Shown here piece after piece: positions 2,296 to 12,804 of a stretch of 64,000 nucleotides of DNA. This DNA comes from Candidatus Hydrothermales bacterium (lineage in GTDB: Bacteria > Hydrothermota > Hydrothermia > Hydrothermales > JAJRUZ01). The notes beneath the pieces were generated by a model. That model made no database searches. It had not been told where the DNA came from and was given only the letters and a program-made list of their open reading frames with translations. The position numbers were made by a program, and so were the translations under genes. Numbering within the stretch: the stretch's first letter is position 1; each line of letters begins with the position of its first letter. The DNA lies in assembly GCA_039630235.1 (NCBI GenBank), contig JBCNVI010000002.1, forward strand, positions 57,501-121,500, written 5' to 3'.

Positions 2296-2994
2296 CTAAG
2301 ATGAGTCTTCCTCAAAAAGTTTAATTATTTCGTCTTTTCTGAAACTTCTTTGAAACTCCCTTTTTATAGTACCATTTTTTAAAAACAAAATCCTATCAGA
2401 AATCTCAATTGCAAAATCTACATCATGAGTTGCAATCACTATTGTTCCTTTTAAATCCTTTATTAACTTCATAAACTTTCTCCTTGCTAAGGGTGAAAGC
2501 CCAAGAGTAGGCTCATCCAAAAGAAATATTTCAGGCTCATAAGAAAGTAAACTGGCAAGAGATACCCTCTTTTTTTCACCATATGAAAGATGATGGGATA
2601 CCTTATTTTCAAAATCTTTTAGCCCAACCCTGTTTAAGGAATTTCTAACTATCTCATCTAAGTTTCCCTTTATTTTGTAATTCTTTGCACCAAAAGCTAC
2701 ATCATCGTAAACTCTTGGCATAAAAAGTGAATCATCTGGATTTTCAAATAAAAAACCAATCTTTCTTCTTAAACTTTCCTTAAAATCTTCACCATCAATT
2801 AAAACTTTTCCCCTAAATTTTAAAAGTCCACAGATACATAAAAGTAAAGTAGTTTTACCAGACCCGTTTTCTCCTATTATACTTATCCTCTCATTTTCAA
2901 AAATCTTTAAGTTTATATCTTTAAGCACATCCTCCTTTTCTTCATAAGAAAAACTCAAGTTTATAGTCTCTATCTTAACTTTTCTATACTCCAT
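2296..2994 (-). CDS. cbiO: ECF/CbiO-type ABC ATPase of a cobalt/nickel transporter
   Basis: Walker A GENGSGKTTLL, signature LSYGEKKRVSLA, Walker B FLLDEPT, H-loop ATHD. Overlaps cbiQ by 25 nt. Confidence 0.9.
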   Translation of the reverse strand: MEYRKVKIETINLSFSYEEKEDVLKDINLKIFENERISIIGENGSGKTTLLLCICGLLKFRGKVLIDGEDFKESLRRKIGFLFENPDDSLFMPRVYDDVAFGAKNYKIKGNLDEIVRNSLNRVGLKDFENKVSHHLSYGEKKRVSLASLLSYEPEIFLLDEPTLGLSPLARRKFMKLIKDLKGTIVIATHDVDFAIEISDRILFLKNGTIKREFQRSFRKDEIIKLFEEDSS

Positions 2995-3581
2995 CCCCTT
3001 GAAATCATCGCCTTTAATACTTTCTCCGATCTTTCATAAGATCTCAAGAACAAAAAACCAGATAGTATAAGATAGCTTTTAAAGTCAGGCCTTTTCCCCT
3101 TTGAAACCATTGATCTTTTCATTCTTAAAAACTCATCTTCCAGTATAAAAAAGTAGCGATACAGAAAGGATAAAATAAGAGAAATCAATTTTCCGTGTGG
3201 GGCCCTTTCAAGAAGTTTTATAAATTCCTCAATTTTAGTAACTGATAGAAAAAAAATTATACTAAAAACAGAAAGTATTGACCTTACTATGGCAAAAAAA
3301 AATTGTGTTAAACTTTTATTGCTCAAAAGTGAGAGAAAAAAAATAACCATCAAAAATGGCGTGATTAACATAACTCTCTTTAAAAGATAAAGAGGAGGAA
3401 CCTTTGATATGAAAAGGAAGGTTAATAGGATCAGAAAAATGACAAGATAAAAATATAAATTAGGAGGAAAAGCAATCAAGATGGAAAGTAAAAATATTAG
3501 GACTAAAAGTTTAATACGAGCGGGAAGGTTCTGCAAAAAACCTTTTTCATAAGCAAATTGATCAATAAATTTGTGTTTCAT
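2970..3581 (-). CDS. cbiQ: ECF transporter transmembrane (T) component CbiQ
   Basis: 203 aa polytopic membrane protein located between cbiM and cbiO. The C-terminal ...RSYERSEKVLKAMISRG matches the conserved CbiQ/EcfT arginine-containing coupling helices. Confidence 0.8.
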   Translation of the reverse strand: MKHKFIDQFAYEKGFLQNLPARIKLLVLIFLLSILIAFPPNLYFYLVIFLILLTFLFISKVPPLYLLKRVMLITPFLMVIFFLSLLSNKSLTQFFFAIVRSILSVFSIIFFLSVTKIEEFIKLLERAPHGKLISLILSFLYRYFFILEDEFLRMKRSMVSKGKRPDFKSYLILSGFLFLRSYERSEKVLKAMISRGWSIEKLR

Positions 3582-4207
3582 ATCTTTTCGATTTCTAAAA
3601 GTTTAGGCTTTAACTTTTTTATAAAATTAAAGAGAAAAACTGTAAAAATCCCTTCAAGCGAACCAGAGATTGCATGAGAAAAGATAATTATAAAGGCACT
3701 TTTTTGAAAAGAAATTTTCCCCGAAAAGTGAAGTTCTAACGCTACAAGTAAACTTCCAATGAGAATAGTTAAGAGTGCCACAAAAAATATAACAACATTT
3801 TCAAATTTAAGTAAAATTCTTGTTAAAAATTTATAAAGGTAAAAGCCTAAGATACAACCTAAAAAGGCAATGTTTAGTGCATTTGCACCGAGTGTAAGGA
3901 TTCCTCCGTGAGAAAGTAGTAGAGCCTGAAGTAATAGAGATAAAAAATTTATAAAAAATGCTGAAAATGGACCAAGAATAAGAGAGATAAAGAAACTTCC
4001 CTGTAGGTGAACCGAAGTTCCAAAGGGTAAGGGAAAACTTATGCTACTTAATAAAAAAACATAGGCCGCTGAAAGACCTAAAAGGGGTACCTTTTCCGCC
4101 TCTATTTTTTTTAATATTTTTTTTCCAGAATAAAAAAAAGTTAAATAGGAAACTGCACTCGTAACAGCAAGTGTCTTTGCATCTAAAAAACCATCAGGAA
4201 TGTGCAT
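3578..4207 (-). CDS. cbiM: Cobalt/nickel substrate-capture component CbiM/NikM
   Basis: The N-terminus MHIPDGFLD is the hallmark metal-ligating Met1-His2 motif of CbiM/NikM. 209 aa, multi-TM. Confidence 0.9.
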   Translation of the reverse strand: MHIPDGFLDAKTLAVTSAVSYLTFFYSGKKILKKIEAEKVPLLGLSAAYVFLLSSISFPLPFGTSVHLQGSFFISLILGPFSAFFINFLSLLLQALLLSHGGILTLGANALNIAFLGCILGFYLYKFLTRILLKFENVVIFFVALLTILIGSLLVALELHFSGKISFQKSAFIIIFSHAISGSLEGIFTVFLFNFIKKLKPKLLEIEKI

Positions 4208-4610
4208 TCTTCAGTTTTCTATAGGCAAGAATATAAAATATAGATCCAGAAAACATAAGTATAATTCCAAGACCTAGGATTAGTCTTGATTCAAACGTAG
4301 CTTTACTTTTCAGAAAAATTAACTCCTCTAAATTTTCGACCACGATTTCTTTGACTATCCCATGCCCCATACCATCATCCACCTCTATTTTCCATTTTCC
4401 CTTTTCGTTTGGTAAAAATAGTGCCCTTCCTTCCCTGTCAAGCATCCCTTGTGAGAATATTTTTCCATCCGGAGAATAAATTTTATATTCTGCAAAGGAT
4501 AGAGGCGTTCTATCCTCGTAAAAAAATCTTATACCACTTGCTCCCTTAAAAAACTCAAAACTAACTCCATGTGAAAAGATACTTATCGCGAGTAGAAAGT
4601 TAACGTGCAT
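4194..4610 (-). CDS. Small accessory protein of the Ni/Co transporter, in a NikL-like position (no canonical CbiN present)
   Basis: 138 aa. It has an N-terminal hydrophobic segment, a beta-rich middle (KIYSPDGK...GKWKIEVDDGMGHG) and a C-terminal TM (LILGLGIILMFSGSIFYILAY). It overlaps cbiM by 14 nt and the upstream ORF by 28 nt. Confidence 0.45.
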   Translation of the reverse strand: MHVNFLLAISIFSHGVSFEFFKGASGIRFFYEDRTPLSFAEYKIYSPDGKIFSQGMLDREGRALFLPNEKGKWKIEVDDGMGHGIVKEIVVENLEELIFLKSKATFESRLILGLGIILMFSGSIFYILAYRKLKNAHS

Positions 4611-5158
4611 ACTCTATCTTTTTCTCTTTTTATTATTAAATTGAGTCCCTTTTTAGACTTATAAAGGTTTTTGAACCGACCCTTTCCCTTTTCGTTTAAG
4701 AATTCATAGTTAGATGGTGAAAATTTAATCTCTCCTTCCTTAAAGTCAAAGTTTTCCAACTTAATTTCAAAGTCGTATCCTAAATTCTTAAACTCGGTAA
4801 TTTTCTCTAAGTAAAAGTAACTTTTACCTATGTAAAGAACCTCTTCACCTTTTGAAAGGGTAAAAAAAACAAGATAGGTTCCCTTTTCCGAGGGTGTAAA
4901 CTCAGAGACTATATAATTTTTTTCTCTTTTGTACTCAAGTTTAACCTCTTCGCCGGATGGTTTTATTACCTTAAATTCTTTAATAAGGTTTTCTCTTGGC
5001 GCTATCTCTGACTCAAATAATTTATGTCCCCCCTTTATAAATAACTCTATCTTCTCGTTTTCCTTAGGATAAGGATTTGAAATTTCAATCCAAAAGTCAT
5101 GAGAATATAAAAGACCAAGAGTTACTAAAATAAGGCTTACTCCTCTCATTTTTAGCAC
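4583..5158 (-). CDS. Periplasmic DUF4198 / CbiK(NikK)-like metal-binding component
   Basis: 191 aa with signal peptide MLKMRGVSLILVTLGLLYS. The mature protein starts HDFWIE, typical of DUF4198 (COG5266) proteins that accompany CbiM/NikM. Confidence 0.55.
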   Translation of the reverse strand: MLKMRGVSLILVTLGLLYSHDFWIEISNPYPKENEKIELFIKGGHKLFESEIAPRENLIKEFKVIKPSGEEVKLEYKREKNYIVSEFTPSEKGTYLVFFTLSKGEEVLYIGKSYFYLEKITEFKNLGYDFEIKLENFDFKEGEIKFSPSNYEFLNEKGKGRFKNLYKSKKGLNLIIKREKDRVCTLTFYSR

Positions 5159-5177
5159 AGGGGTTTAGAATATATAC

Positions 5178-5897
5178 TTAGAATATATACATTAAAGAGA
5201 CATTAGCTCTAAGATGAGTTGTGTTTTTATTTCCAAATCCAATACCTGTTTTTATTATAGAACGTTCAATGGGGAAATAGAGGGCTGGTAGGAAAAATAG
5301 GGCTCCCTCGTAGTCTCCGAGGATTTCAATTCCACCAGCAATACCATGGGGATCAGCAGAAAGTGGATTTTTGATTCCTAAGGCCCACTCTCTTATAAGT
5401 TCATCTCCCTCCCTGGCAAAAGAAAAATTAACTGATATATTTGAGTGAGTTAGAAAGTTTTTACTTAGTATTATCTCTCCCTCAAAGACTTCTTTACTGT
5501 CAAGATATAATCTACTTCTGTAAAATGGAACCTCGTAGGAAAAAAGAAGAGCTAAATTTAAGAGTCCGAAACTTTTGAATCTTATCTGGAGAGAAAAGTT
5601 GGCTGCCTCAATCATAGGTGAAAGTTCGGCTCTATCTTTCACATAAGCTTTTCCGAATTTTGCAAAGTGTGTATGAACTCCAAACATTATATGGTCTGTT
5701 ATCCCATAGGAAAGGCCAGGAGTGAGTTCCCAATGGTCATAATCTGAGCTGTCTCTATTTTCGACGTAGTAATCGTATATCAGATGAAAGATTTTTTCAT
5801 TTTTTGCACAGGTATTGTAAGACTCTACTGCTATGTATTCTTTAGAGTGGTGAGCGTAAATTGTAAGAGCACCTAAGAGAAGAATTAATTTTTTCAT
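5178..5897 (-). CDS. Putative outer-membrane beta-barrel protein, first gene of the Ni/Co uptake string
   Basis: Signal peptide MKKLILLLGALTIYA followed by HHSKE. Alternating amphipathic beta pattern and a C-terminal ...SLMYIF aromatic terminus. Confidence 0.45.
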   Translation of the reverse strand: MKKLILLLGALTIYAHHSKEYIAVESYNTCAKNEKIFHLIYDYYVENRDSSDYDHWELTPGLSYGITDHIMFGVHTHFAKFGKAYVKDRAELSPMIEAANFSLQIRFKSFGLLNLALLFSYEVPFYRSRLYLDSKEVFEGEIILSKNFLTHSNISVNFSFAREGDELIREWALGIKNPLSADPHGIAGGIEILGDYEGALFFLPALYFPIERSIIKTGIGFGNKNTTHLRANVSLMYIF

Positions 5898-5989: not shown

Positions 5990-7225
5990 ATGAATGTAAG
6001 GAAAAATTTAAATATTTCTCTTGTTGAAGGAGTTGTATCTGGTATTCATTTTGGAATATCTAATGGTGTTTTTATAACTGCCTTTGCTGTAAAAATAGGT
6101 GCTTTAGCTCATGAAGTTGCTTTTATGAGTTCTCTTTTTAATATCTCCTTTATTTTTACTTTTATTTCAATTTTCTTTCTTTCGATTTTAAAAAGACCTA
6201 TGATCATTGCTGGAGTAACAGGTTTTATATCAAGGGGTATATGGGGCATTTTTCTCTTTGAAATTTTCTGGAATGTAAAAATTCTTTTTTTAATAATATT
6301 TATTTCAGGGATTTTTTTAAACGTTTCTTCTACAGCTTGGAGTTTTTGGTTTGCAAATATTTTGAAAAAAGTCGAACATGGAAGGGGCGAATACCTCGGA
6401 ACAAGACTAGGCGTTATAACACTTTTTCAATCAGTCTCATTTTTTATTGTTGGTTTAATTTTTGAAAAAGTGGGCTTTAAATCTCTTTTTCTTATCCTTT
6501 TTTTACTTTCAATCCTCTCTTTAATTCTGTACTTTTTTCAGGATGAAATTAAGATAGAAGAAAAGTTCAATTTAAAAACCTATTTAAAAGAAATAATAAC
6601 TGACAGGGATTTTAAAGTATTCATTACCTACATTTTTATTTTCAACGTTTTAATAAATGTAACAGCCCCCATGTTTGGTTACTATGCAGTCAAGTATATG
6701 AAGTTAAGGAATTTTGAGATAGCCCTATGGACTGTATCTATGGGACTTGGAAGTGCAATTTTCCAGCCCTTTTGGGGCAAGTTCATAGAAAAAATTTCTC
6801 CACGAGCTACCTTAAAAATAAATCTATTTTTCATCACAACTATTCCATTAATTTGGATAATAAGACCTCCTTGGATGTGGTACTTTATATACCTTGACGG
6901 CTTTTTAAGTACCTTTGGCTGGTCAGGAATAAATCTTGCTCACTCCTACATTAATTTGATGCTTATTAAAAACCCAATATACCAAATCGTCTTTCTCACT
7001 ATTGGAGGAACGGGAAGTTTCATAGGAAATAACATTGGAGGCCTCTTTGTGAAGTGTTTTAAAAGCGAAGAATTGGGAATTAAATTTTCCTTTTTTCTCT
7101 CCTCTCTTTTCAGATTTCTTATTGCTCTTTACTTACCTAAATTCAATGTAGGAAAAATTATACCAACAAAAAAGGCAATGCTTTTTATCGTAAAGTATCT
7201 TCTGTCAAAATTTTTAACAAGATAA
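5990..7225 (+). CDS. MFS-type transporter (putative)
   Basis: 411 aa with about 12 hydrophobic segments in a 6+6 arrangement and a central hydrophilic loop (QDEIKIEEKFNLKTYLKE). Confidence 0.55.
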   Translation: MNVRKNLNISLVEGVVSGIHFGISNGVFITAFAVKIGALAHEVAFMSSLFNISFIFTFISIFFLSILKRPMIIAGVTGFISRGIWGIFLFEIFWNVKILFLIIFISGIFLNVSSTAWSFWFANILKKVEHGRGEYLGTRLGVITLFQSVSFFIVGLIFEKVGFKSLFLILFLLSILSLILYFFQDEIKIEEKFNLKTYLKEIITDRDFKVFITYIFIFNVLINVTAPMFGYYAVKYMKLRNFEIALWTVSMGLGSAIFQPFWGKFIEKISPRATLKINLFFITTIPLIWIIRPPWMWYFIYLDGFLSTFGWSGINLAHSYINLMLIKNPIYQIVFLTIGGTGSFIGNNIGGLFVKCFKSEELGIKFSFFLSSLFRFLIALYLPKFNVGKIIPTKKAMLFIVKYLLSKFLTR

Positions 7226-7229
7226 GTTA

Positions 7230-7790
7230 TCAGAATATATCAATGTTTGGAGGAGAAACTATATGTATAAGAAGAGCAGATTTGTTTTTTGAACGATTTT
7301 CAAAAAAGTGCACCTTATCAGGATGAAAATAGTAGCTTTCACCTCTTAACACTTTTAATCTCCTTTTACCTAACTGAAAAAAAACTGCACCTTTCAAAAC
7401 AAATCCACCTTCTTCTCCTTCATGAGGAGTCTCAGGTCTTGTTGAAGTAAAGGGAGGAATCTCAACCTTTAATATATCAAAAGACTTATTACCTCCAAAG
7501 GGTGTTAACAGCAATATTTTTACGTTCTCTTTCTCTATGTACTTATAGTTTAGTTTACTAAACTTAAATAGGAGACCCTTTTCCTCTTTTTCAAAAAATT
7601 CAGAGAAAGTTAGACCTAAAGCATCAAGTATGTTTTTAAAAGTTGAAATAGTAGGAGTTATTTTACCTCTTTCAATTTGAGAAAGTGCAGACTTTGTAAT
7701 TCCAGATCTTAAGGCAAGTTCACTCAGAGTAATTCCATCTGCCTTCCTTAACTTTCTTATTTTCTCTCCAATTTCTTTTTCAAAAGACAT
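7230..7790 (-). CDS. XRE-family HTH + cupin-domain transcriptional regulator
   Basis: HTH is IGEKIRKLRKADGITLSELALRSGITKSALSQIERG. C-terminal cupin is HEGEEGGFVLKGAV...YYFHPDKVHFFEN. It is divergent from kamA. Confidence 0.85.
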   Translation of the reverse strand: MSFEKEIGEKIRKLRKADGITLSELALRSGITKSALSQIERGKITPTISTFKNILDALGLTFSEFFEKEEKGLLFKFSKLNYKYIEKENVKILLLTPFGGNKSFDILKVEIPPFTSTRPETPHEGEEGGFVLKGAVFFQLGKRRLKVLRGESYYFHPDKVHFFENRSKNKSALLIHIVSPPNIDIF

Positions 7791-7818
7791 ATAATATTTT
7801 AAAGTTTTCCACAGACTC

Positions 7819-7847
7819 TTGACAAACTGTTTTTTTTGTTTTATTAT
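7819..7847 (+). promoter_or_regulatory. Sigma-70-like promoter for the kamA operon
   Basis: TTGACA (7819-7824), a 17-nt spacer, then TATTAT (7842-7847), about 50 nt upstream of the kamA ATG. Confidence 0.4.
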
Positions 7848-7896
7848 TATTAACTGAAAATTTTGTTAAGTAAAATATAACTTTGAGAAGGGGAAC

Positions 7897-9225
7897 ATGG
7901 AAACAAAAAGGGAGGAAAAAAATAAGGAAACTTTGAGGGGGGAAGAACCTCCCCCTTTAGCGGCTCTCTCAGTAGATACTGAGGAGAAATACTTTTGGCA
8001 GAGGTACCCCCTATATAGAGATATTCCCCCTGAAGTTTTCTACGATTGGAAATGGCAAATCAAAAATCTAATTAGAACACCCGAAAAGCTCTTTGAGGCC
8101 TTCCCCTTTCTAAGCGAAAAAGAAAAAAGAGAAATAAGATTAGTTGCAAGAAGCTATCCTATTCTTATTTCACCCTACTACCTTTCACTTATAGACCCTG
8201 ATAATCCAGATGATCCAATAAGAAAGCAAGCTATACCCACAATTCTTGAGATTAAAGATAAAACGGGAGTAAGGGATCCCCTTGAAGAAGAGGAAGATGA
8301 AGCTGCCCCTGGACTTATCCATAGATATCCCGATAGGGCACTTTTAATTACCACAAACTTTTGCACAACTTACTGTAGACATTGTACACGAAAGAGATTA
8401 CTTGGAAAAGGTGGAACTGTTAGGGTCTATAATGAGTTTAATAAAGTAACAGATTATTTAAGTAAACATCCCGAGATTAACGAAATTATACTTTCGGGTG
8501 GTGATCCATTGACACTACCTCTCCTTAAGTTAAAGTTTATTCTTGATGAACTAAGTAAAGTACCTACAATACAAATAGTCAGAATAGGTTCAAGAGTTCC
8601 TGTAACTCTTCCTATGAGACTCTTTGATGAGGAACTTTTAAAACTTCTTTCAAGTTATGATTTTCTGTGGCTCAACACTCACTTCAATCATCCAAATGAA
8701 ATTACAGAACTTTCAAAAAAGGCAGTTTTAAATCTTTTAAAGTGCGGTATACCAGTAAATAACCAAACTGTTCTTTTAAAGGGAGTAAACGATAACGTGG
8801 AAATCATGAGAGAGCTTTTAAAAGGTCTACTAAGAATAAAGGTAAGACCCTATTATCTTTTCCACTGTGACCCTACAAAGGGTGTATCTCACTTTAGAAC
8901 CTCAGTTTATAAAGGAATAGAAATAATGGAAGCTTTAAAGGGACATATTTCAGGACTTGCAATACCTACCTACGTTGTAGATGCACCCCACGGGGGAGGA
9001 AAAATCCCTATTATGCCAAACTACATCATATCACTCTCTGACAATAAAATTATTTTGCGAAATTATGAAGGTATGATAGTTTCCTACTCCTGGAATAACG
9101 AGGAAAAAGAGGAAAATCTAAACTCGTTCGTTAAGGAAGGGGTATACGGACTAATCAAGGGAGAGGGAAAGTATCTAGTTCCAGAGGGTTTAAATAGGAT
9201 AGAAAGAAGGAGAAGTAGAAAGTAG
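7897..9225 (+). CDS. kamA: Lysine 2,3-aminomutase (radical SAM, PLP-dependent; KamA/AblA family)
   Basis: CTTYCRHC radical-SAM cluster motif at 8362-8385. Both lysine-epsilon-amine-binding Asp residues are retained (HCDPT and VVDAP), as is the PLP Lys in GGGK. The 37/7-residue spacing matches the Clostridium enzyme. Confidence 0.85.
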   Translation: METKREEKNKETLRGEEPPPLAALSVDTEEKYFWQRYPLYRDIPPEVFYDWKWQIKNLIRTPEKLFEAFPFLSEKEKREIRLVARSYPILISPYYLSLIDPDNPDDPIRKQAIPTILEIKDKTGVRDPLEEEEDEAAPGLIHRYPDRALLITTNFCTTYCRHCTRKRLLGKGGTVRVYNEFNKVTDYLSKHPEINEIILSGGDPLTLPLLKLKFILDELSKVPTIQIVRIGSRVPVTLPMRLFDEELLKLLSSYDFLWLNTHFNHPNEITELSKKAVLNLLKCGIPVNNQTVLLKGVNDNVEIMRELLKGLLRIKVRPYYLFHCDPTKGVSHFRTSVYKGIEIMEALKGHISGLAIPTYVVDAPHGGGKIPIMPNYIISLSDNKIILRNYEGMIVSYSWNNEEKEENLNSFVKEGVYGLIKGEGKYLVPEGLNRIERRRSRK

Positions 9226-9254
9226 TCAAAAATTTAGAGCTAGAAGCTAAGGTT

Positions 9255-10250
9255 ATGAAGATAGGAATCGCCTTTGATCTTAAACCTAAAGAAGTGCCTT
9301 CTTTTTTACCTGAGGATATCTTTGAGGAATTCGATTCAGAGCAAACTATTGAATCAATAGGAAAGGCTCTTAAAAATCTCGGATTTGAGGTCTTTTATCT
9401 TGGTAGTGGAAAAGCCTTTATCGAAAAAATCTTAGTAAATAAGCCTGATTTTGTGTTTAACATAGCTGAGGGTTTTGGTACAAGATCAAGAGAGGGACAC
9501 ATTCCCTCTATCTGTGAAGTTTTCAACATACCCTATTCTGGCTCTGATCCCTTAGCCCTGAACGTAACTCTTGATAAGGAACTTTGTAAGAGATTTGCCA
9601 AATCCCTAAACATTAGAACCCCTTACTTTAAGGTAATTAAAAGTAAAAAAGACGTTAAAAACTTTAAGTTTAATAAGTTCCCCTGTGTTTTAAAACTAAA
9701 AAACGAAGGATCTAGTATCGGTCTCAGGCTTTCATCAAAAGTAAACAGCTTAGAGGAGCTAAAAGATAAAGCTTTAGAACTTTTTGAACTTTATAATGAG
9801 GAAATCCTTGTAGAAAAATTCATCGCTGGAAAAGAGATTACAGTTGGAATTATAGGGAATAAAAGGATCAAATTTTTAGGTTTCATGGAAATAAGACCTA
9901 AAAAGCTTGAACTTCCTAATTTTCTCTACTCTCTTGAGATAAAGAGAAACTTTAGGGAAGAGGTAGAATATATTGTACCCCCTGAAATACCGGGGGAGAC
10001 ATTAAAGGAAATAAAAAGATACGTTCTTAAGTTATTTAGATATTTAAATTTAAGGGATTTTGCAAGATTTGATTTTAGATTAGATGAGGATTTAAAGCCA
10101 TATTTTCTTGAGATTAATCCACTTCCAGGATTAAATCCTGAAACAAGTGATTTTCCTATAATGGTTTATAAAAGTGGACTTACTTACGATGAAATAATAA
10201 AAATGATACTATACAGTGCCTTTGAAAGATACGGTATTAAAAAAAAATAA
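9255..10250 (+). CDS. ATP-grasp ligase, D-Ala-D-Ala-ligase-like (paralogue 1)
   Basis: 331 aa with Ddl-like architecture: N-domain FNIAEGFG..REGHIPSICEVFNIPYSGSDP, ATP-grasp core VLKLKNEGSSIGL, EKFIAGKEITVGI and FDFRLDE...YFLEINPLPG. Confidence 0.8.
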   Translation: MKIGIAFDLKPKEVPSFLPEDIFEEFDSEQTIESIGKALKNLGFEVFYLGSGKAFIEKILVNKPDFVFNIAEGFGTRSREGHIPSICEVFNIPYSGSDPLALNVTLDKELCKRFAKSLNIRTPYFKVIKSKKDVKNFKFNKFPCVLKLKNEGSSIGLRLSSKVNSLEELKDKALELFELYNEEILVEKFIAGKEITVGIIGNKRIKFLGFMEIRPKKLELPNFLYSLEIKRNFREEVEYIVPPEIPGETLKEIKRYVLKLFRYLNLRDFARFDFRLDEDLKPYFLEINPLPGLNPETSDFPIMVYKSGLTYDEIIKMILYSAFERYGIKKK

Positions 10251-10251
10251 A

Positions 10252-11193
10252 ATGAGAGTTTGTATACTTTTTAATACCTCACGATATATCGGTAGACCTG
10301 ATATAGAAAGTGTTTATGATGAGGTTAATATGGTTAAAGAAGCTCTAAAGCAATTGTCCTATGACTATTTTCTTCTTCCTGTCGACAGAAGCTATCAATG
10401 GATAGATAGGTTAAAGGAAAGGGATTTCGATGTTGTTTTTAATCTCTGTGAAGATTTTGATGGCAATCCAGAGGGGGAAAGTTGGGTTGCTGGAATTCTT
10501 GAAACACTTAGTATTCCATATACGGGCTCACCTCCAACAAGTCTATCTATCTGTTTGGATAAGATAAAAGCAAAAATCTTGGTTTCCTTTCACGGCATAA
10601 AAACTCCATCATTTTTTTTGCCCAATTCAGATAACATTAAATTCTTACCTCTAATTTTAAAACCTATAAGATGTGATGCAAGTCTACATATTGAGAAAAA
10701 AAATGTAATTTATAAAGTAGAAGATTACTTTAAATTTTTAGAGGAGGTAAAGAATTTAAATGTTGAGTTCTTTGCTGAAGAATACATAGATGGAAGAGAG
10801 TTTAATGTTTCTATCTTTGACGATAAAGTGATAGGAATAGGAGAGGTTGTCTTTAAAACAAATCCAAAAGTCTTAACTTATAGTTCAAAATGGAACAAAA
10901 AAAGCAAAGAGTACCTTTTAACTCCAGTCATTTATCCTGCAAAACTGGATGAGGACAAAAAGAGGGAAATTGAAAATCTTTCGCTTAAAGTTTTTAAAAT
11001 ACTTGAAATGAGAGACTACGGAAGAGTAGATCTAAGGATGGATGAAAGTGGTACAGTCTATTTTATTGAAGCAAACCCCAATCCGGATGTATCTTACAAC
11101 TCTGGTTTCTATAGAGCCCTAAAATACGCTGGCATTTCTTACGCTAACTTTGTTAAAAGGCTAATTGAGAAGGCCTTGACAAGAAGCGAGTGA
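10252..11193 (+). CDS. ATP-grasp ligase, D-Ala-D-Ala-ligase-like (paralogue 2)
   Basis: The start is placed at the internal ATG (MRVCILFN), 1 nt after the upstream stop. Motifs: FNLCEDFDG...ILETLSIPYTGSPP, EEYIDGREFNVSI, VDLRMDESGTVYFIEANPNP. Confidence 0.8.
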   Translation: MRVCILFNTSRYIGRPDIESVYDEVNMVKEALKQLSYDYFLLPVDRSYQWIDRLKERDFDVVFNLCEDFDGNPEGESWVAGILETLSIPYTGSPPTSLSICLDKIKAKILVSFHGIKTPSFFLPNSDNIKFLPLILKPIRCDASLHIEKKNVIYKVEDYFKFLEEVKNLNVEFFAEEYIDGREFNVSIFDDKVIGIGEVVFKTNPKVLTYSSKWNKKSKEYLLTPVIYPAKLDEDKKREIENLSLKVFKILEMRDYGRVDLRMDESGTVYFIEANPNPDVSYNSGFYRALKYAGISYANFVKRLIEKALTRSE

Positions 11194-11657
11194 AATTAGA
11201 GGAATTAAAAGTAAAAAAGATTTCTAATGAACATAGGCATTTTGTTGAAGACATAGTTAATAAAACTCAAGATTTTTCGGAAAAAGATAAAAAAACATGT
11301 CTCAATGTTTTTGATGGAATAGAAAAGGGTGAGTATGAGGGGTTAGGAGTATTCAAAGGTGAGAAGCTCACAGGATTTATACTATTTACAGAGAATTCTC
11401 TTGCAGACTCTGTTATTGAACTTTTATGGATAGCAGTTGATCCAGATTTTTATGGAAAGGGTGTAGCACAAATCCTCTGGGATGAATTTTTTAAAGAGGT
11501 TAAAAAGAGAAACGCAAGATTGATTGTCTTAGAAACTCAACCCAGACATAAAAGGGCTAGGGCATTTTATAGGAAAATCGGATTTGAAAAGGAAGCGGAA
11601 ATTAGAGATTTTTATGCAGAGGGGGAACCTAAAGAGATCTGGGTAAAAAGAATTTAG
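11190..11657 (+). CDS. GNAT-family N-acetyltransferase
   Basis: 155 aa. The acetyl-CoA pocket is WIAVDPDFYGKGVAQIL, followed by ...FYRKIGFE. The GTG start overlaps the upstream TGA (GTGA). Confidence 0.8.
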   Translation: MKLEELKVKKISNEHRHFVEDIVNKTQDFSEKDKKTCLNVFDGIEKGEYEGLGVFKGEKLTGFILFTENSLADSVIELLWIAVDPDFYGKGVAQILWDEFFKEVKKRNARLIVLETQPRHKRARAFYRKIGFEKEAEIRDFYAEGEPKEIWVKRI

Positions 11658-11669
11658 CTCTGAGTAAAC

Positions 11670-12308
11670 TTAGAACTTTTCACTTTTTATAAAAGAGTAT
11701 AATCTATAGATTCCATTGTCCCATCTCCATACATTTACCAGCATTAAGCCAAAAATCATAATATAGGGATTTTTAAAGATCTCTGTTAAGATGGAAAAAA
11801 TAAATATGACAAAAACAACAATATCTCTTGTATCTCTTACCAAATGTCTTTTGAAACCCTTTGTATTTTTAACTATGAATTGGGTAATAAGTCTAGTTGC
11901 TATTGTCAATGAAACAGTAAAGAGAATAAGTGTGTTGCTTATTTTATACTTAGTAAGGGATAAACCAAAAGAGAAAGCAGCAATAGAGTCGACTATATAA
12001 TCACACACAGTATCTAAAAGTGCTCCACCTTGTGAACTTAATTTTTTCTTTCTTGCAATCTCTCCATCAACACCGTCAAAAATTGATGCAAGTTGATAAA
12101 AGAGGCCAGTTAAAAAGATGTTTTTAATAATTCCGGATATTATAAGTAGACTCGAAAATATAAAAAGGAAAAAAAGAGTTATTTTGTTAGGGGTAACGTT
12201 TGTTTTTATTAAAATTTTTGTAAAAAGAGAGGATATGTACCTGTTTAGACGTTTAGAAATTATTCCATCCTTTGGTTTTGAGTCTGGGTGTGCCTTAAAC
12301 AATATCAT
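11670..12308 (-). CDS. CDP-alcohol phosphatidyltransferase family protein
   Basis: Signature D(x2)DG(x2)AR(x8)G(x3)D(x3)D is present as FDGVDGEIARKKKLSSQGGALLDTVCDYIVD. 212 aa, multi-TM. Confidence 0.85.
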   Translation of the reverse strand: MILFKAHPDSKPKDGIISKRLNRYISSLFTKILIKTNVTPNKITLFFLFIFSSLLIISGIIKNIFLTGLFYQLASIFDGVDGEIARKKKLSSQGGALLDTVCDYIVDSIAAFSFGLSLTKYKISNTLILFTVSLTIATRLITQFIVKNTKGFKRHLVRDTRDIVVFVIFIFSILTEIFKNPYIMIFGLMLVNVWRWDNGIYRLYSFIKSEKF

Positions 12309-12804
12309 TTTCTTCTAAGTCCTTTAATATTAATTTTAAAGATTCTTCTTCAGATAGTTTAGATGTATCAATTATTAAGGAGTTTGGGGTTATGTTTTTT
12401 AGTAAACTGTTATAAAATTCTAGAAGTCTTTCCTCTCCCTTGGGTTCAACAGAACTTCTATCTCTTTCTAATAGAGTCTCAAAGGGCGGATTTAAAAGAT
12501 AAATCCTATATTTTACTCCCCTTTTTTTTATATATTTTAAAACTTTAGACAACTCTTTTTTGTATGTAAATGAGTAATCGAGAATAAGAGAGTACCCCTC
12601 TTTTAGTAATTTTTTAATGATCTCATAGTAAATTTTAAATCTTATTCTATTTTTTTCAAATTTTTTTTTAATTTTGAAGATCTCGTCATATTGAACAAGT
12701 ACTACTCCTTTTTCTTTGAGGTTTTCAAAAAGCCTCTTAGAGATCGCGGTTTTTCCTGCCCTTGGAGCACCTCTCATAATAATGGCGAATTGAGAATTAC
12801 TCAT
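12295..12804 (-). CDS. P-loop NTPase / small-molecule kinase-like protein (AAA_33/zeta-like)
   Basis: Walker A is MRGAPRAGKTAIS. 169 aa. Overlaps the downstream CDP-alcohol transferase gene by 14 nt. Confidence 0.55.
   Translation of the reverse strand: MSNSQFAIIMRGAPRAGKTAISKRLFENLKEKGVVLVQYDEIFKIKKKFEKNRIRFKIYYEIIKKLLKEGYSLILDYSFTYKKELSKVLKYIKKRGVKYRIYLLNPPFETLLERDRSSVEPKGEERLLEFYNSLLKNITPNSLIIDTSKLSEEESLKLILKDLEENDIV

Follow-up and report, generated by a model that had tools for sequence, protein, structure and literature searches.

A stretch of 64,000 nucleotides from a Candidatus Hydrothermales bacterium (contig JBCNVI010000002.1, positions 57,501 to 121,500; hereafter the window, numbered from its first letter) carries four co-directional genes that probably constitute a beta-lysine pathway extended by two ligases derived from D-alanine-D-alanine ligase (Ddl), an arrangement that is both widespread and uncharacterised. 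The genes code for a KamA-family aminomutase, two ATP-grasp ligases, here called AG1 and AG2, and a GNAT N-acetyltransferase. On balance, we favour the view that the operon directs regulated synthesis of a small, N-acetylated, peptide-like metabolite containing beta-lysine, by a route that is non-ribosomal and also independent of non-ribosomal peptide synthetases. An initial annotation of the window had read the locus as an uncharacterised pathway derived from beta-lysine, and the analysis reported here supports that interpretation. The core genes are as follows.

7897-9225, + strand: KamA-family radical S-adenosylmethionine (SAM)/pyridoxal phosphate (PLP) aminomutase, 442 aa, with Radical_SAM and LAM_C domains; predicted lysine 2,3-aminomutase
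9255-10250, + strand: AG1, Ddl-like ATP-grasp ligase, 331 aa, Dala_Dala_lig_C domain
10252-11193, + strand: AG2, second Ddl-like ATP-grasp ligase, 313 aa from its ATG, Dala_Dala_lig_C domain
11190-11657, + strand: GNAT N-acetyltransferase, 155 aa, Acetyltransf_1 domain

KamA and AG1 are separated by a 29-nt gap, AG1 and AG2 by a single nucleotide (TAA-A-ATG) given an AG2 start at 10252 (an alternative start is the GTG at 10216), and the AG2 stop overlaps the GNAT start in the sequence GTGA (11190-11193). The open reading frames (ORFs), gaps and overlap are all present just as the initial annotation had placed them.

A conserved four-gene core

Using a pattern search of species-representative genomes, we identified at least 593 loci with a relative of AG1. 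Adjacency was counted in the best 80 of these, all from other genomes and with contig ends allowed for, so denominators vary; 91 loci were surveyed overall, including ten further contexts retrieved by exact protein look-up. KamA lies directly upstream of AG1 in 65 of 73 loci and AG2 downstream of AG1 in 63 of 74, and the complete four-gene set is present in 45 of 67, or 36 of 39 when Chloroflexota only are considered. The ten further contexts agree with the conserved order. The loci span about ten major lineages (Chloroflexota/Dehalococcoidia, Planctomycetota, genomes labelled Deltaproteobacteria or Thermodesulfobacteriota, WOR-3, Margulisiibacteriota, Omnitrophota, Krumholzibacteriia, Myxococcota and Alphaproteobacteria), and protein matches additionally name Aminicenantia, Dadabacteria and Acidobacteriota. 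The operon arrangement is not due to chance, since each core protein has homologues elsewhere, numbering from hundreds to thousands, in the same order. In the closest relative (L081, also Candidatus Hydrothermales, with an AG1 86% identical to that of the window) the core is arranged alike, together with the flanking MFS transporter and regulator genes described below. The initial annotation had named survival of the adjacency in related genomes as a check on its reading, and the counts favour that reading even in distant phyla.

Departures from the full set are informative. The smallest versions consist of KamA-AG1 alone (L080, L087 and the Gemmata loci), and retention of this pair in reduced variants ties AG1 to beta-lysine. 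In a Margulisiibacteriota locus (L013), AG2 has been replaced by an unrelated, weakly RimK/LysX-like ATP-grasp protein, so the two-ligase design is retained through displacement by a non-orthologous enzyme.

Two further arrangements were observed. In a delta/Thermodesulfobacteriota group (L034, L040, L047 and L048; also L036 and L038), AG1 stands apart from KamA-AG2, the intervening genes encoding a PAS histidine kinase together with a sigma54-dependent response regulator and a single-domain receiver; a second kinase/regulator pair plus tatC lies upstream. Separate AG1-AG2-GNAT clusters (L067 and L078) occur in one Dehalococcoidales metagenome-assembled genome (MAG; Zod_Metabat.1321), which may mean that some genomes carry the cluster twice, or that the bin is mixed.

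The aminomutase belongs to a lysine-type clade

The KamA protein aligns end to end with the lysine 2,3-aminomutase of Clostridium (PDB 2A5H; E 7.6e-130). Its CxxxCxxC cysteines, C156/C160/C163 (8362-8385), correspond to C125/C129/C132 of 2A5H, and D325 (8869-8871), D362 (8980-8982) and K369 (9001-9003) correspond to D293, D330 and K337, with spacings of 37 and 7 residues as in 2A5H. The radical SAM motif, the Asp pair and the PLP lysine thus occupy the codons to which they were originally assigned. Equivalents of the CxxxCxxC motif, R134, D293, D330 and K337 are invariant in 69 cluster-linked KamA homologues. Glutamate 2,3-aminomutase reportedly carries Lys/Asn at the D293/D330 positions (an observation attributed to Ruzicka and Frey). 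The initial prediction of lysine rather than glutamate as substrate is supported both by Asp at these two positions and by the score against the glutamate 2,3-aminomutase model TIGR04368, which is 423 against a cutoff of 650.

The protein passes the general KamA family model TIGR00238 (314, cutoff 199), and its best NCBIfam equivalog is AblA (TIGR03820), yet it falls under the AblA cutoff (465.7 against 525.4). AblA is likewise the best NCBIfam match in ten of ten diverse cluster-linked KamAs, nine of which are under the cutoff. Matches to the AblA model stop near position 365 of 417 (about 5-365 for the window KamA, the ten diverse homologues behaving alike). Moreover, neither the window KamA nor the family as a whole has counterparts of C268/C375/C377/C380 of 2A5H, the zinc-site cysteines in Clostridium; N300 and non-Cys residues or a gap are found instead. 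As no equivalog cutoff is reached, matches end at about 365 and the zinc-site cysteines are missing, sequence comparison places these proteins in a separate lysine-type clade, clearly neither EpmB nor the glutamate enzyme. Membership of the EpmB clade, which the initial annotation had raised as an objection to its own reading, is disfavoured by the score against TIGR03821 (236.6, cutoff 369.3), far from that for AblA. Neither efp nor epmA was found within the 64-kb window, nor is either linked to the cluster in the surveyed loci.

The WOR-3 KamAs, including that of the window (7897-8000) and that of L001 (5451-5540), begin with some 35 additional residues of charged, low-complexity sequence, e.g. 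METKREEKNKETLRGEEPPP, that are not present in the Clostridium enzyme. KamA homologues of Planctomycetota and Krumholzibacteriia are encoded by far longer ORFs, of 537-595 aa by a crude ORF call.

Two ligases that resemble, but do not match, D-Ala-D-Ala ligases

AG1 and AG2 are paralogues (30% identity, E 1e-29), of which AG2 evolves faster. They score 173.5 and 152.4 bits, respectively, against a Ddl cutoff of 243 (NF002378), all other Ddl and Van models scoring lower, and are 70-90 bits under the lowest Ddl cutoff. To examine their active sites, we compared 73 AG1 and 64 AG2 family members with E. coli DdlB, the sequence of which is identical to PDB 2DLN. Both window proteins keep DdlB residues K97, K144, E180, E187, K215, R255, D257, E270 and N272, and this catalytic set is kept in nearly all members of both families. 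In DdlB, these residues serve in ATP and Mg2+ binding and in stabilisation of the acyl-phosphate. With the full Ddl catalytic set kept, AG1 and AG2 are probably active.

The D-Ala site, on the other hand, has been rebuilt in both. In AG1, H63 is replaced by E72, E68 by R79, L282 by D299, and Y216 by R231 or a gap, depending on the alignment; invariant E24, E25 and D27 lie near the first substrate site, E72 and D299 being likewise gained. In AG2, E15 is replaced by D in the window (by A in most of the family), S150 by A, H63 by E, G276 by D, Y216 by W and L282 by G. Replacement of D-Ala-contact positions in proteins that keep the catalytic set, together with the low model scores, supports the view that these are not bona fide D-Ala-D-Ala ligases, and it answers in favour of the initial reading the question of whether the pair might simply be Ddl.

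Public databases nevertheless label the family 'D-alanine--D-alanine ligase' almost everywhere. A search from a planctomycete AG1 puts the size of the family at 6583 clusters or more (90% identity, E <= 1e-40), and no cultured host appears among the top 120 matches, all of which are metagenome or MAG entries. No second, genuine ddl was found within the 64-kb window, and NCBIfam (release of June 2026) contains no model naming AG1, AG2 or the present KamA clade.

The acetyltransferase

GNAT follows AG2 in 49 of 72 loci, a figure that conceals a strong lineage effect (40 of 42 in Chloroflexota, 1 of 11 in Planctomycetota). The window protein matches 13 NCBIfam families, best RimI at 56 bits (cutoff 86), but has no match to the AblB model TIGR03827 at E <= 0.01. 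The latter result counts in favour of the initial annotation, which had suggested a check for an AblB-type GNAT. There are also weak matches, far under cutoff, to sat4 (E 1e-4) and sat3 (E 2e-3). In the WOR-3 variant that has no GNAT, a 404-aa protein is encoded between KamA and AG1 (L001 6787-8001, L084 5782-6996); the two copies are 74% identical and have no Pfam or NCBIfam match. This inserted protein may be an alternative tailoring enzyme.

Promoter region and flanking genes

Upstream of the core, the window carries the following features.

5990-7225, + strand: MFS transporter, 411 aa, MFS_1 domain; a lineage-specific accessory
7230-7790, - strand: regulator with an XRE helix-turn-helix (HTH) domain and a cupin domain (HTH_3 and Cupin_2), 186 aa, divergent from KamA
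7791-7896, both strands: divergent promoter region, 106 nt between the regulator and KamA

On the + strand, the region contains TTGACA (7819-7824) and TATTAT (7842-7847) separated by 17 nt, the top-scoring site of the region (11/12) and the promoter reported initially. Overall, the promoter scan was no richer than shuffled sequence (24 sites found against 22 expected). What makes the site credible is that it lies between divergent genes and recurs in a WOR-3 relative: L001, whose proteins are 55-70% identical to those of the window, shares both the -35 and the -10 box, as well as a TGTTAAGTAAA box downstream of them. On the - strand, a promoter-like site for the regulator consists of TTGTCA (7825-7820), an 18-nt spacer and TAAAAT, its -35 box overlapping that of the + strand. 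Overlapping divergent -35 boxes of this kind would be a layout typical of divergent gene pairs under autoregulation. Comparison of 7791-7896 with Rfam gave no element, and neither the window nor any of 8 diverse loci yielded a riboswitch.

Outside the four core genes, no neighbour is universal among the surveyed loci. The XRE-cupin regulator shares its architecture with PuuR but reaches only 81 bits against the PuuR model (cutoff 211). It occupies the same position in the WOR-3 relatives L001, L081 and L084, and lies co-directionally upstream of KamA in a delta/Desulfobacterota-like group (L003, L004, L005, L007 and L019). In about 20 Dehalococcoidia loci, the gene divergent from KamA instead encodes a small MarR-like winged-HTH protein, and a histidine kinase with sigma54 activators occurs in a second delta/Thermodesulfobacteriota group. 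Five kinds of transporter are found near the cluster, namely MFS, MarC/NAAT, CitMHS, YfcC-like and RND. The MFS gene of the window is conserved in L081, and homologues with 20-24% identity adjoin the cluster in L013, L041, L042, L065 and L071 (such MFS homologues recur in three phyla), but MFS genes are missing from most loci; MarC/NAAT is present in ten Dehalococcoidia loci, and CitMHS, YfcC-like and RND efflux genes each in single lineages. The initial annotation had treated the regulator and the MFS pump as parts of the pathway. They do adjoin the core in the window, yet across loci they are lineage-specific accessories rather than members of a universal core, the regulator recurring in two phyla.

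Hydrolases also recur. In 11 Dehalococcoidia loci, a 580-aa protein resembling acetylpolyamine amidohydrolase is encoded directly after GNAT or MarC (e.g. L037 4759-6501); its C-terminal domain has its nearest matches among the acetylpolyamine amidohydrolases (PDB 6PHR, E 4.7e-76). The N-terminal domain is weakly GNAT-like (E 0.016) with a GGGIGG motif, making the protein an apparent acetyltransferase-deacetylase fusion as judged from its domains. S66 and Zincin_1 peptidases lie near the cluster in other loci. No small carrier protein or precursor-peptide ORF is conserved beside the cluster in the surveyed loci; two clusters of small ORFs upstream of KamA in Dehalococcoidia (c27 and c40) were considered for such a role and rejected as antisense shadows of the winged-HTH regulator gene. 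From the regulators, the transporters, the deacetylase and the lack of a carrier or precursor, we therefore conclude that the genes point to a pathway under regulation, the product of which would be small, transportable and equipped with an aminoalkyl group open to acetylation. The neighbourhood does not look like that of a protein modification system or of a ribosomally synthesised and post-translationally modified peptide.

Other flanking genes were noted in single lineages. In the WOR-3 locus L087 (1-6964), the reduced KamA-AG1 pair is directly preceded, in the same orientation, by genes for a TetR regulator and for an RND pump with its outer-membrane factor and membrane-fusion protein. In L082 (10524-13913) and L083, a secreted-type cyanophycinase is accompanied by a YfcC-like basic-amino-acid antiporter and a beta-aspartyl dipeptidase, with hutH and hutI flanking. 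Convergent to GNAT in the window (11670-12804, - strand) are genes for a CDP-alcohol phosphatidyltransferase, which scores best against the di-myo-inositol-phosphate-phosphate synthase domain (80 bits, far under cutoff), and an overlapping AAA_33-type kinase. This pair accompanies GNAT in the window and L081, and both the pair and GNAT are missing from the WOR-3 loci L001 and L084; it could be concerned with a thermoprotectant or with lipid head groups, or belong to an indel of three genes. Finally, upstream of the MFS gene (2296-5897, - strand) lies an ECF-type CbiM/CbiQ/ABC-ATPase metal (cobalt/nickel) uptake cluster, which also holds a DUF4198 protein and two unannotated proteins and retains its synteny in L081.

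A proposed pathway and its alternatives

In the pathway we favour, KamA would convert L-lysine to beta-lysine by radical SAM and PLP chemistry. AG1 would join beta-lysine to an amine or carboxylate partner through an acyl-phosphate formed at the expense of ATP; the AG1 pocket, being enriched in invariant acidic residues, would suit a diamino substrate. AG2 would then form a second amide bond, and GNAT would acetylate a remaining free amine, most likely an aminoalkyl amine within the beta-lysine part. The XRE-cupin protein, a divergently encoded regulator of repressor type, would control the operon via the overlapping divergent promoters, and in the lineage of the window the MFS protein would probably move the product or a precursor across the membrane. 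We infer which substrates AG1 and AG2 use, in what order the steps occur, where acetylation takes place and what the physiological role is; gene content, residue conservation and gene order across phyla, by contrast, are observed. A more specific version of the proposal has, in our estimation, not quite an even chance of being correct: that the product is a primary metabolite, a reversibly N-acetylated beta-lysyl di- or tripeptide that stands in for polyamines or acts as a stress solute across many uncultured phyla (candidates being Dehalococcoidia, Planctomycetota, WOR-3, Desulfobacterota-like lineages, Omnitrophota and others), and that the ligases, with thousands of database entries from these lineages under the D-alanine--D-alanine ligase name, form a new family acting on beta-amino acids.

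Several points weigh against this pathway. The nature of the product and its role, whether solute, polyamine-like compound or secreted peptide, are pure inference, and the substrate assignment of AG1 and AG2 comes from residue substitutions read against DdlB, so it should be taken as a prediction. The adjacency evidence derives entirely from MAGs. Most planctomycete loci, like the WOR-3 variant L001/L084, do without a GNAT, meaning that acetylation is not universal, and transporters are heterogeneous and missing from many loci, for which reason export is no more than a possibility. Last, conservation at D293/D330 would formally be compatible with another basic amino acid, such as arginine or ornithine, as the KamA substrate, and the score of the window KamA against the arginine 2,3-aminomutase model (368, cutoff 600) is not negligible.

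This last point bears on a pathway built instead on beta-arginine or beta-ornithine. The arginine model gives 342-432 bits on cluster-linked KamAs, and a guanidinium or a shorter amine would likewise be bound by an acidic pair, but the AblA model beats it in 11 of 11 proteins, by 65 to 125 bits, and residue identity and spacing match the solved lysine enzyme; we therefore regard this variant as improbable. Much the same low probability attaches to protein modification, in which beta-lysine, or a short peptide with it, would be ligated onto a protein in the manner of EF-P or of the RimK/RimI targets. EpmB and EpmA beta-lysylate EF-P, RimK and RimI modify ribosomal proteins, and RimI is the best NCBIfam match of GNAT; against this, that match is under cutoff, the ligases are Ddl-like and not RimK-like, KamA stands at a distance from EpmB, linkage to efp, epmA or genes for ribosomal proteins is seen neither in the window nor in the surveyed loci, and the recurrent neighbours are small-molecule-type regulators, transporters and the acetylpolyamine-deacetylase-like enzyme. 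Least credible of all is accidental proximity, whereby KamA and GNAT would make N-acetyl-beta-lysine beside a genuine pair of cell-wall D-Ala-D-Ala ligases. While the public label of the ligases and the AblA match of KamA might suggest as much, the shortfall of 70-90 bits from Ddl cutoffs and the loss of H63, Y216 and L282 (in AG2 also E15 and S150) are hard to reconcile with it, as is the position of the ligases between KamA and GNAT, at gaps of 1-29 nt or overlaps and in the same order in distant phyla. Moreover, mur and other wall-synthesis genes are not among the recurrent neighbours of the surveyed loci, and GNAT lacks an AblB match.

Two further alternatives concern the nature of the product. 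A secreted bioactive peptide, that is a beta-lysine antibiotic or interference compound with GNAT for self-protection and an MFS or RND exporter, would fit the fact that streptothricin resistance is acetylation of the beta-lysine amine, and the weak sat4 and sat3 matches of GNAT; exporter-type transporters adjoin the cluster in several lineages, including the TetR-RND set of L087, and the negamycin cluster provides a precedent (10.1101/2025.05.27.656397). However, the sat matches are far under cutoff, many loci have no transporter, about ten major lineages carry the cluster, and it is near-universal in sampled Chloroflexota, including a 1.7-Mb genome. This breadth, with near-universality in Chloroflexota, means that a housekeeping or stress metabolite fits better than a specialised weapon, and we consider the latter unlikely. 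Slightly more doubtful still is a cationic polymer, with a processive ATP-grasp enzyme making oligo- or poly-(beta-lysine) or a cyanophycin-like chain of Asp and beta-Lys that GNAT caps or neutralises. ATP-grasp enzymes do include processive polymerases (RimK and the G domain of cyanophycin synthetase), the acid-rich AG1 pocket would suit a polyamine-like growing chain, and L082/L083 are flanked by a cyanophycinase (205.5, cutoff 126.6) and a beta-aspartyl dipeptidase (369.6, cutoff 331). That link, however, is confined to one lineage (L082/L083 of the 91 loci; the close relatives L088/L089 are without it), the L082 cyanophycinase carries a signal peptide and is preceded by a separate AT-rich spacer, and cyanophycinase, transporter and dipeptidase form a self-sufficient scavenging module for external cyanophycin. 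Neither CphA nor RimK is among the best family matches of either ligase. We downgraded the polymer, and with it a cyanophycin-like product, because the cyanophycinase link does not recur in the other 89 loci and the enzyme looks secreted within a scavenging module.

Significance

Conserved operons of unknown product are not rare. If the pathway proposed here is correct, however, a widespread beta-lysine-based small molecule is missing from the metabolic maps of several abundant environmental phyla, and Dehalococcoidia keep four genes for it despite possibly small genomes (one locus is on a 1.7-Mb chromosome). It would also follow that a large family, the 6583 or more clusters noted above, is systematically mis-annotated as D-Ala-D-Ala ligase, distorting cell-wall inference in groups where the presence of peptidoglycan is debated. 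AG1 and AG2 would then be new ATP-grasp ligases taking a beta-amino diamino acid, useful for making beta-peptides. Since the operon is 3.8 kb and has no further required partners, the proposal is directly testable by heterologous expression.

Comparison with known systems

We found no published description of the cluster in the full-text literature, though the amidoligase survey of Iyer et al. 2009 may already list the neighbourhood as a prediction. The initial annotation recognised no characterised pathway of this composition, and neither a curated family nor a paper describing the cluster was found. For beta-lysine formation together with ATP-grasp enzymes, the negamycin cluster is a partial precedent (bioRxiv 10.1101/2025.05.27.656397).

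The ligases share with DdlB (2DLN) and the Van ligases the Dala_Dala_lig_C fold family and the residues for ATP/Mg2+ binding and phosphoryl transfer. They differ in that the D-Ala positions are replaced, all cutoffs are missed, and the context is a beta-lysine operon rather than cell-wall synthesis. Microviridin/graspetide clusters contain two ATP-grasp ligases, a GNAT and a transporter. The likeness is one of superficial composition only, as the present cluster has no conserved precursor-peptide gene, its ligases are Ddl-like, and its constant partner is an aminomutase of free amino acids.

Closer in chemistry is the AblA/AblB system, which makes N-epsilon-acetyl-beta-lysine, a compatible solute of methanogens. 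In both cases an aminomutase (here AblA-closest) is followed by a GNAT in an operon, and the pathway probably ends with acetylation of an amine of beta-lysine. Unlike AblA/AblB, which has no ATP-grasp ligase, the present cluster places two between aminomutase and GNAT; in addition, its KamA is under the AblA cutoff and its GNAT is a 155-aa protein that does not match AblB.

Synthesis of N-acetylglutaminylglutamine amide (NAGGN) offers another parallel, in that Ngg joins acetylation and peptide-bond formation, with a divergent repressor and a peptidase gene in the operon (PMC8070244). As in NAGGN synthesis by Ngg and AsnO (Sinorhizobium, Pseudomonas), the product proposed here would be a non-ribosomal, N-acetylated small peptide made by acetyltransferase and ligation activities under a divergent repressor. 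The NAGGN system differs in using glutamine, in combining both activities in the one Ngg protein, and in having neither an aminomutase nor a second ligase, while the present cluster has no AsnO homologue and a GNAT without a match to the Ngg model.

ATP-grasp amino-acid ligases condense free amino acids, and carnosine synthase activates a beta-amino acid. The negamycin (neg) cluster pairs an ATP-grasp member with the formation of beta-lysine (10.1101/2025.05.27.656397). The likeness of these systems to the present cluster lies in ATP-grasp condensation, including that of beta-amino acids. The L-amino-acid-ligase and negamycin clusters, however, are narrow and lineage-specific, with tailoring enzymes of their own (a KinJ-type heme enzyme, a hydroxylase and a methyltransferase), whereas the four-gene core described here extends across about ten major lineages.

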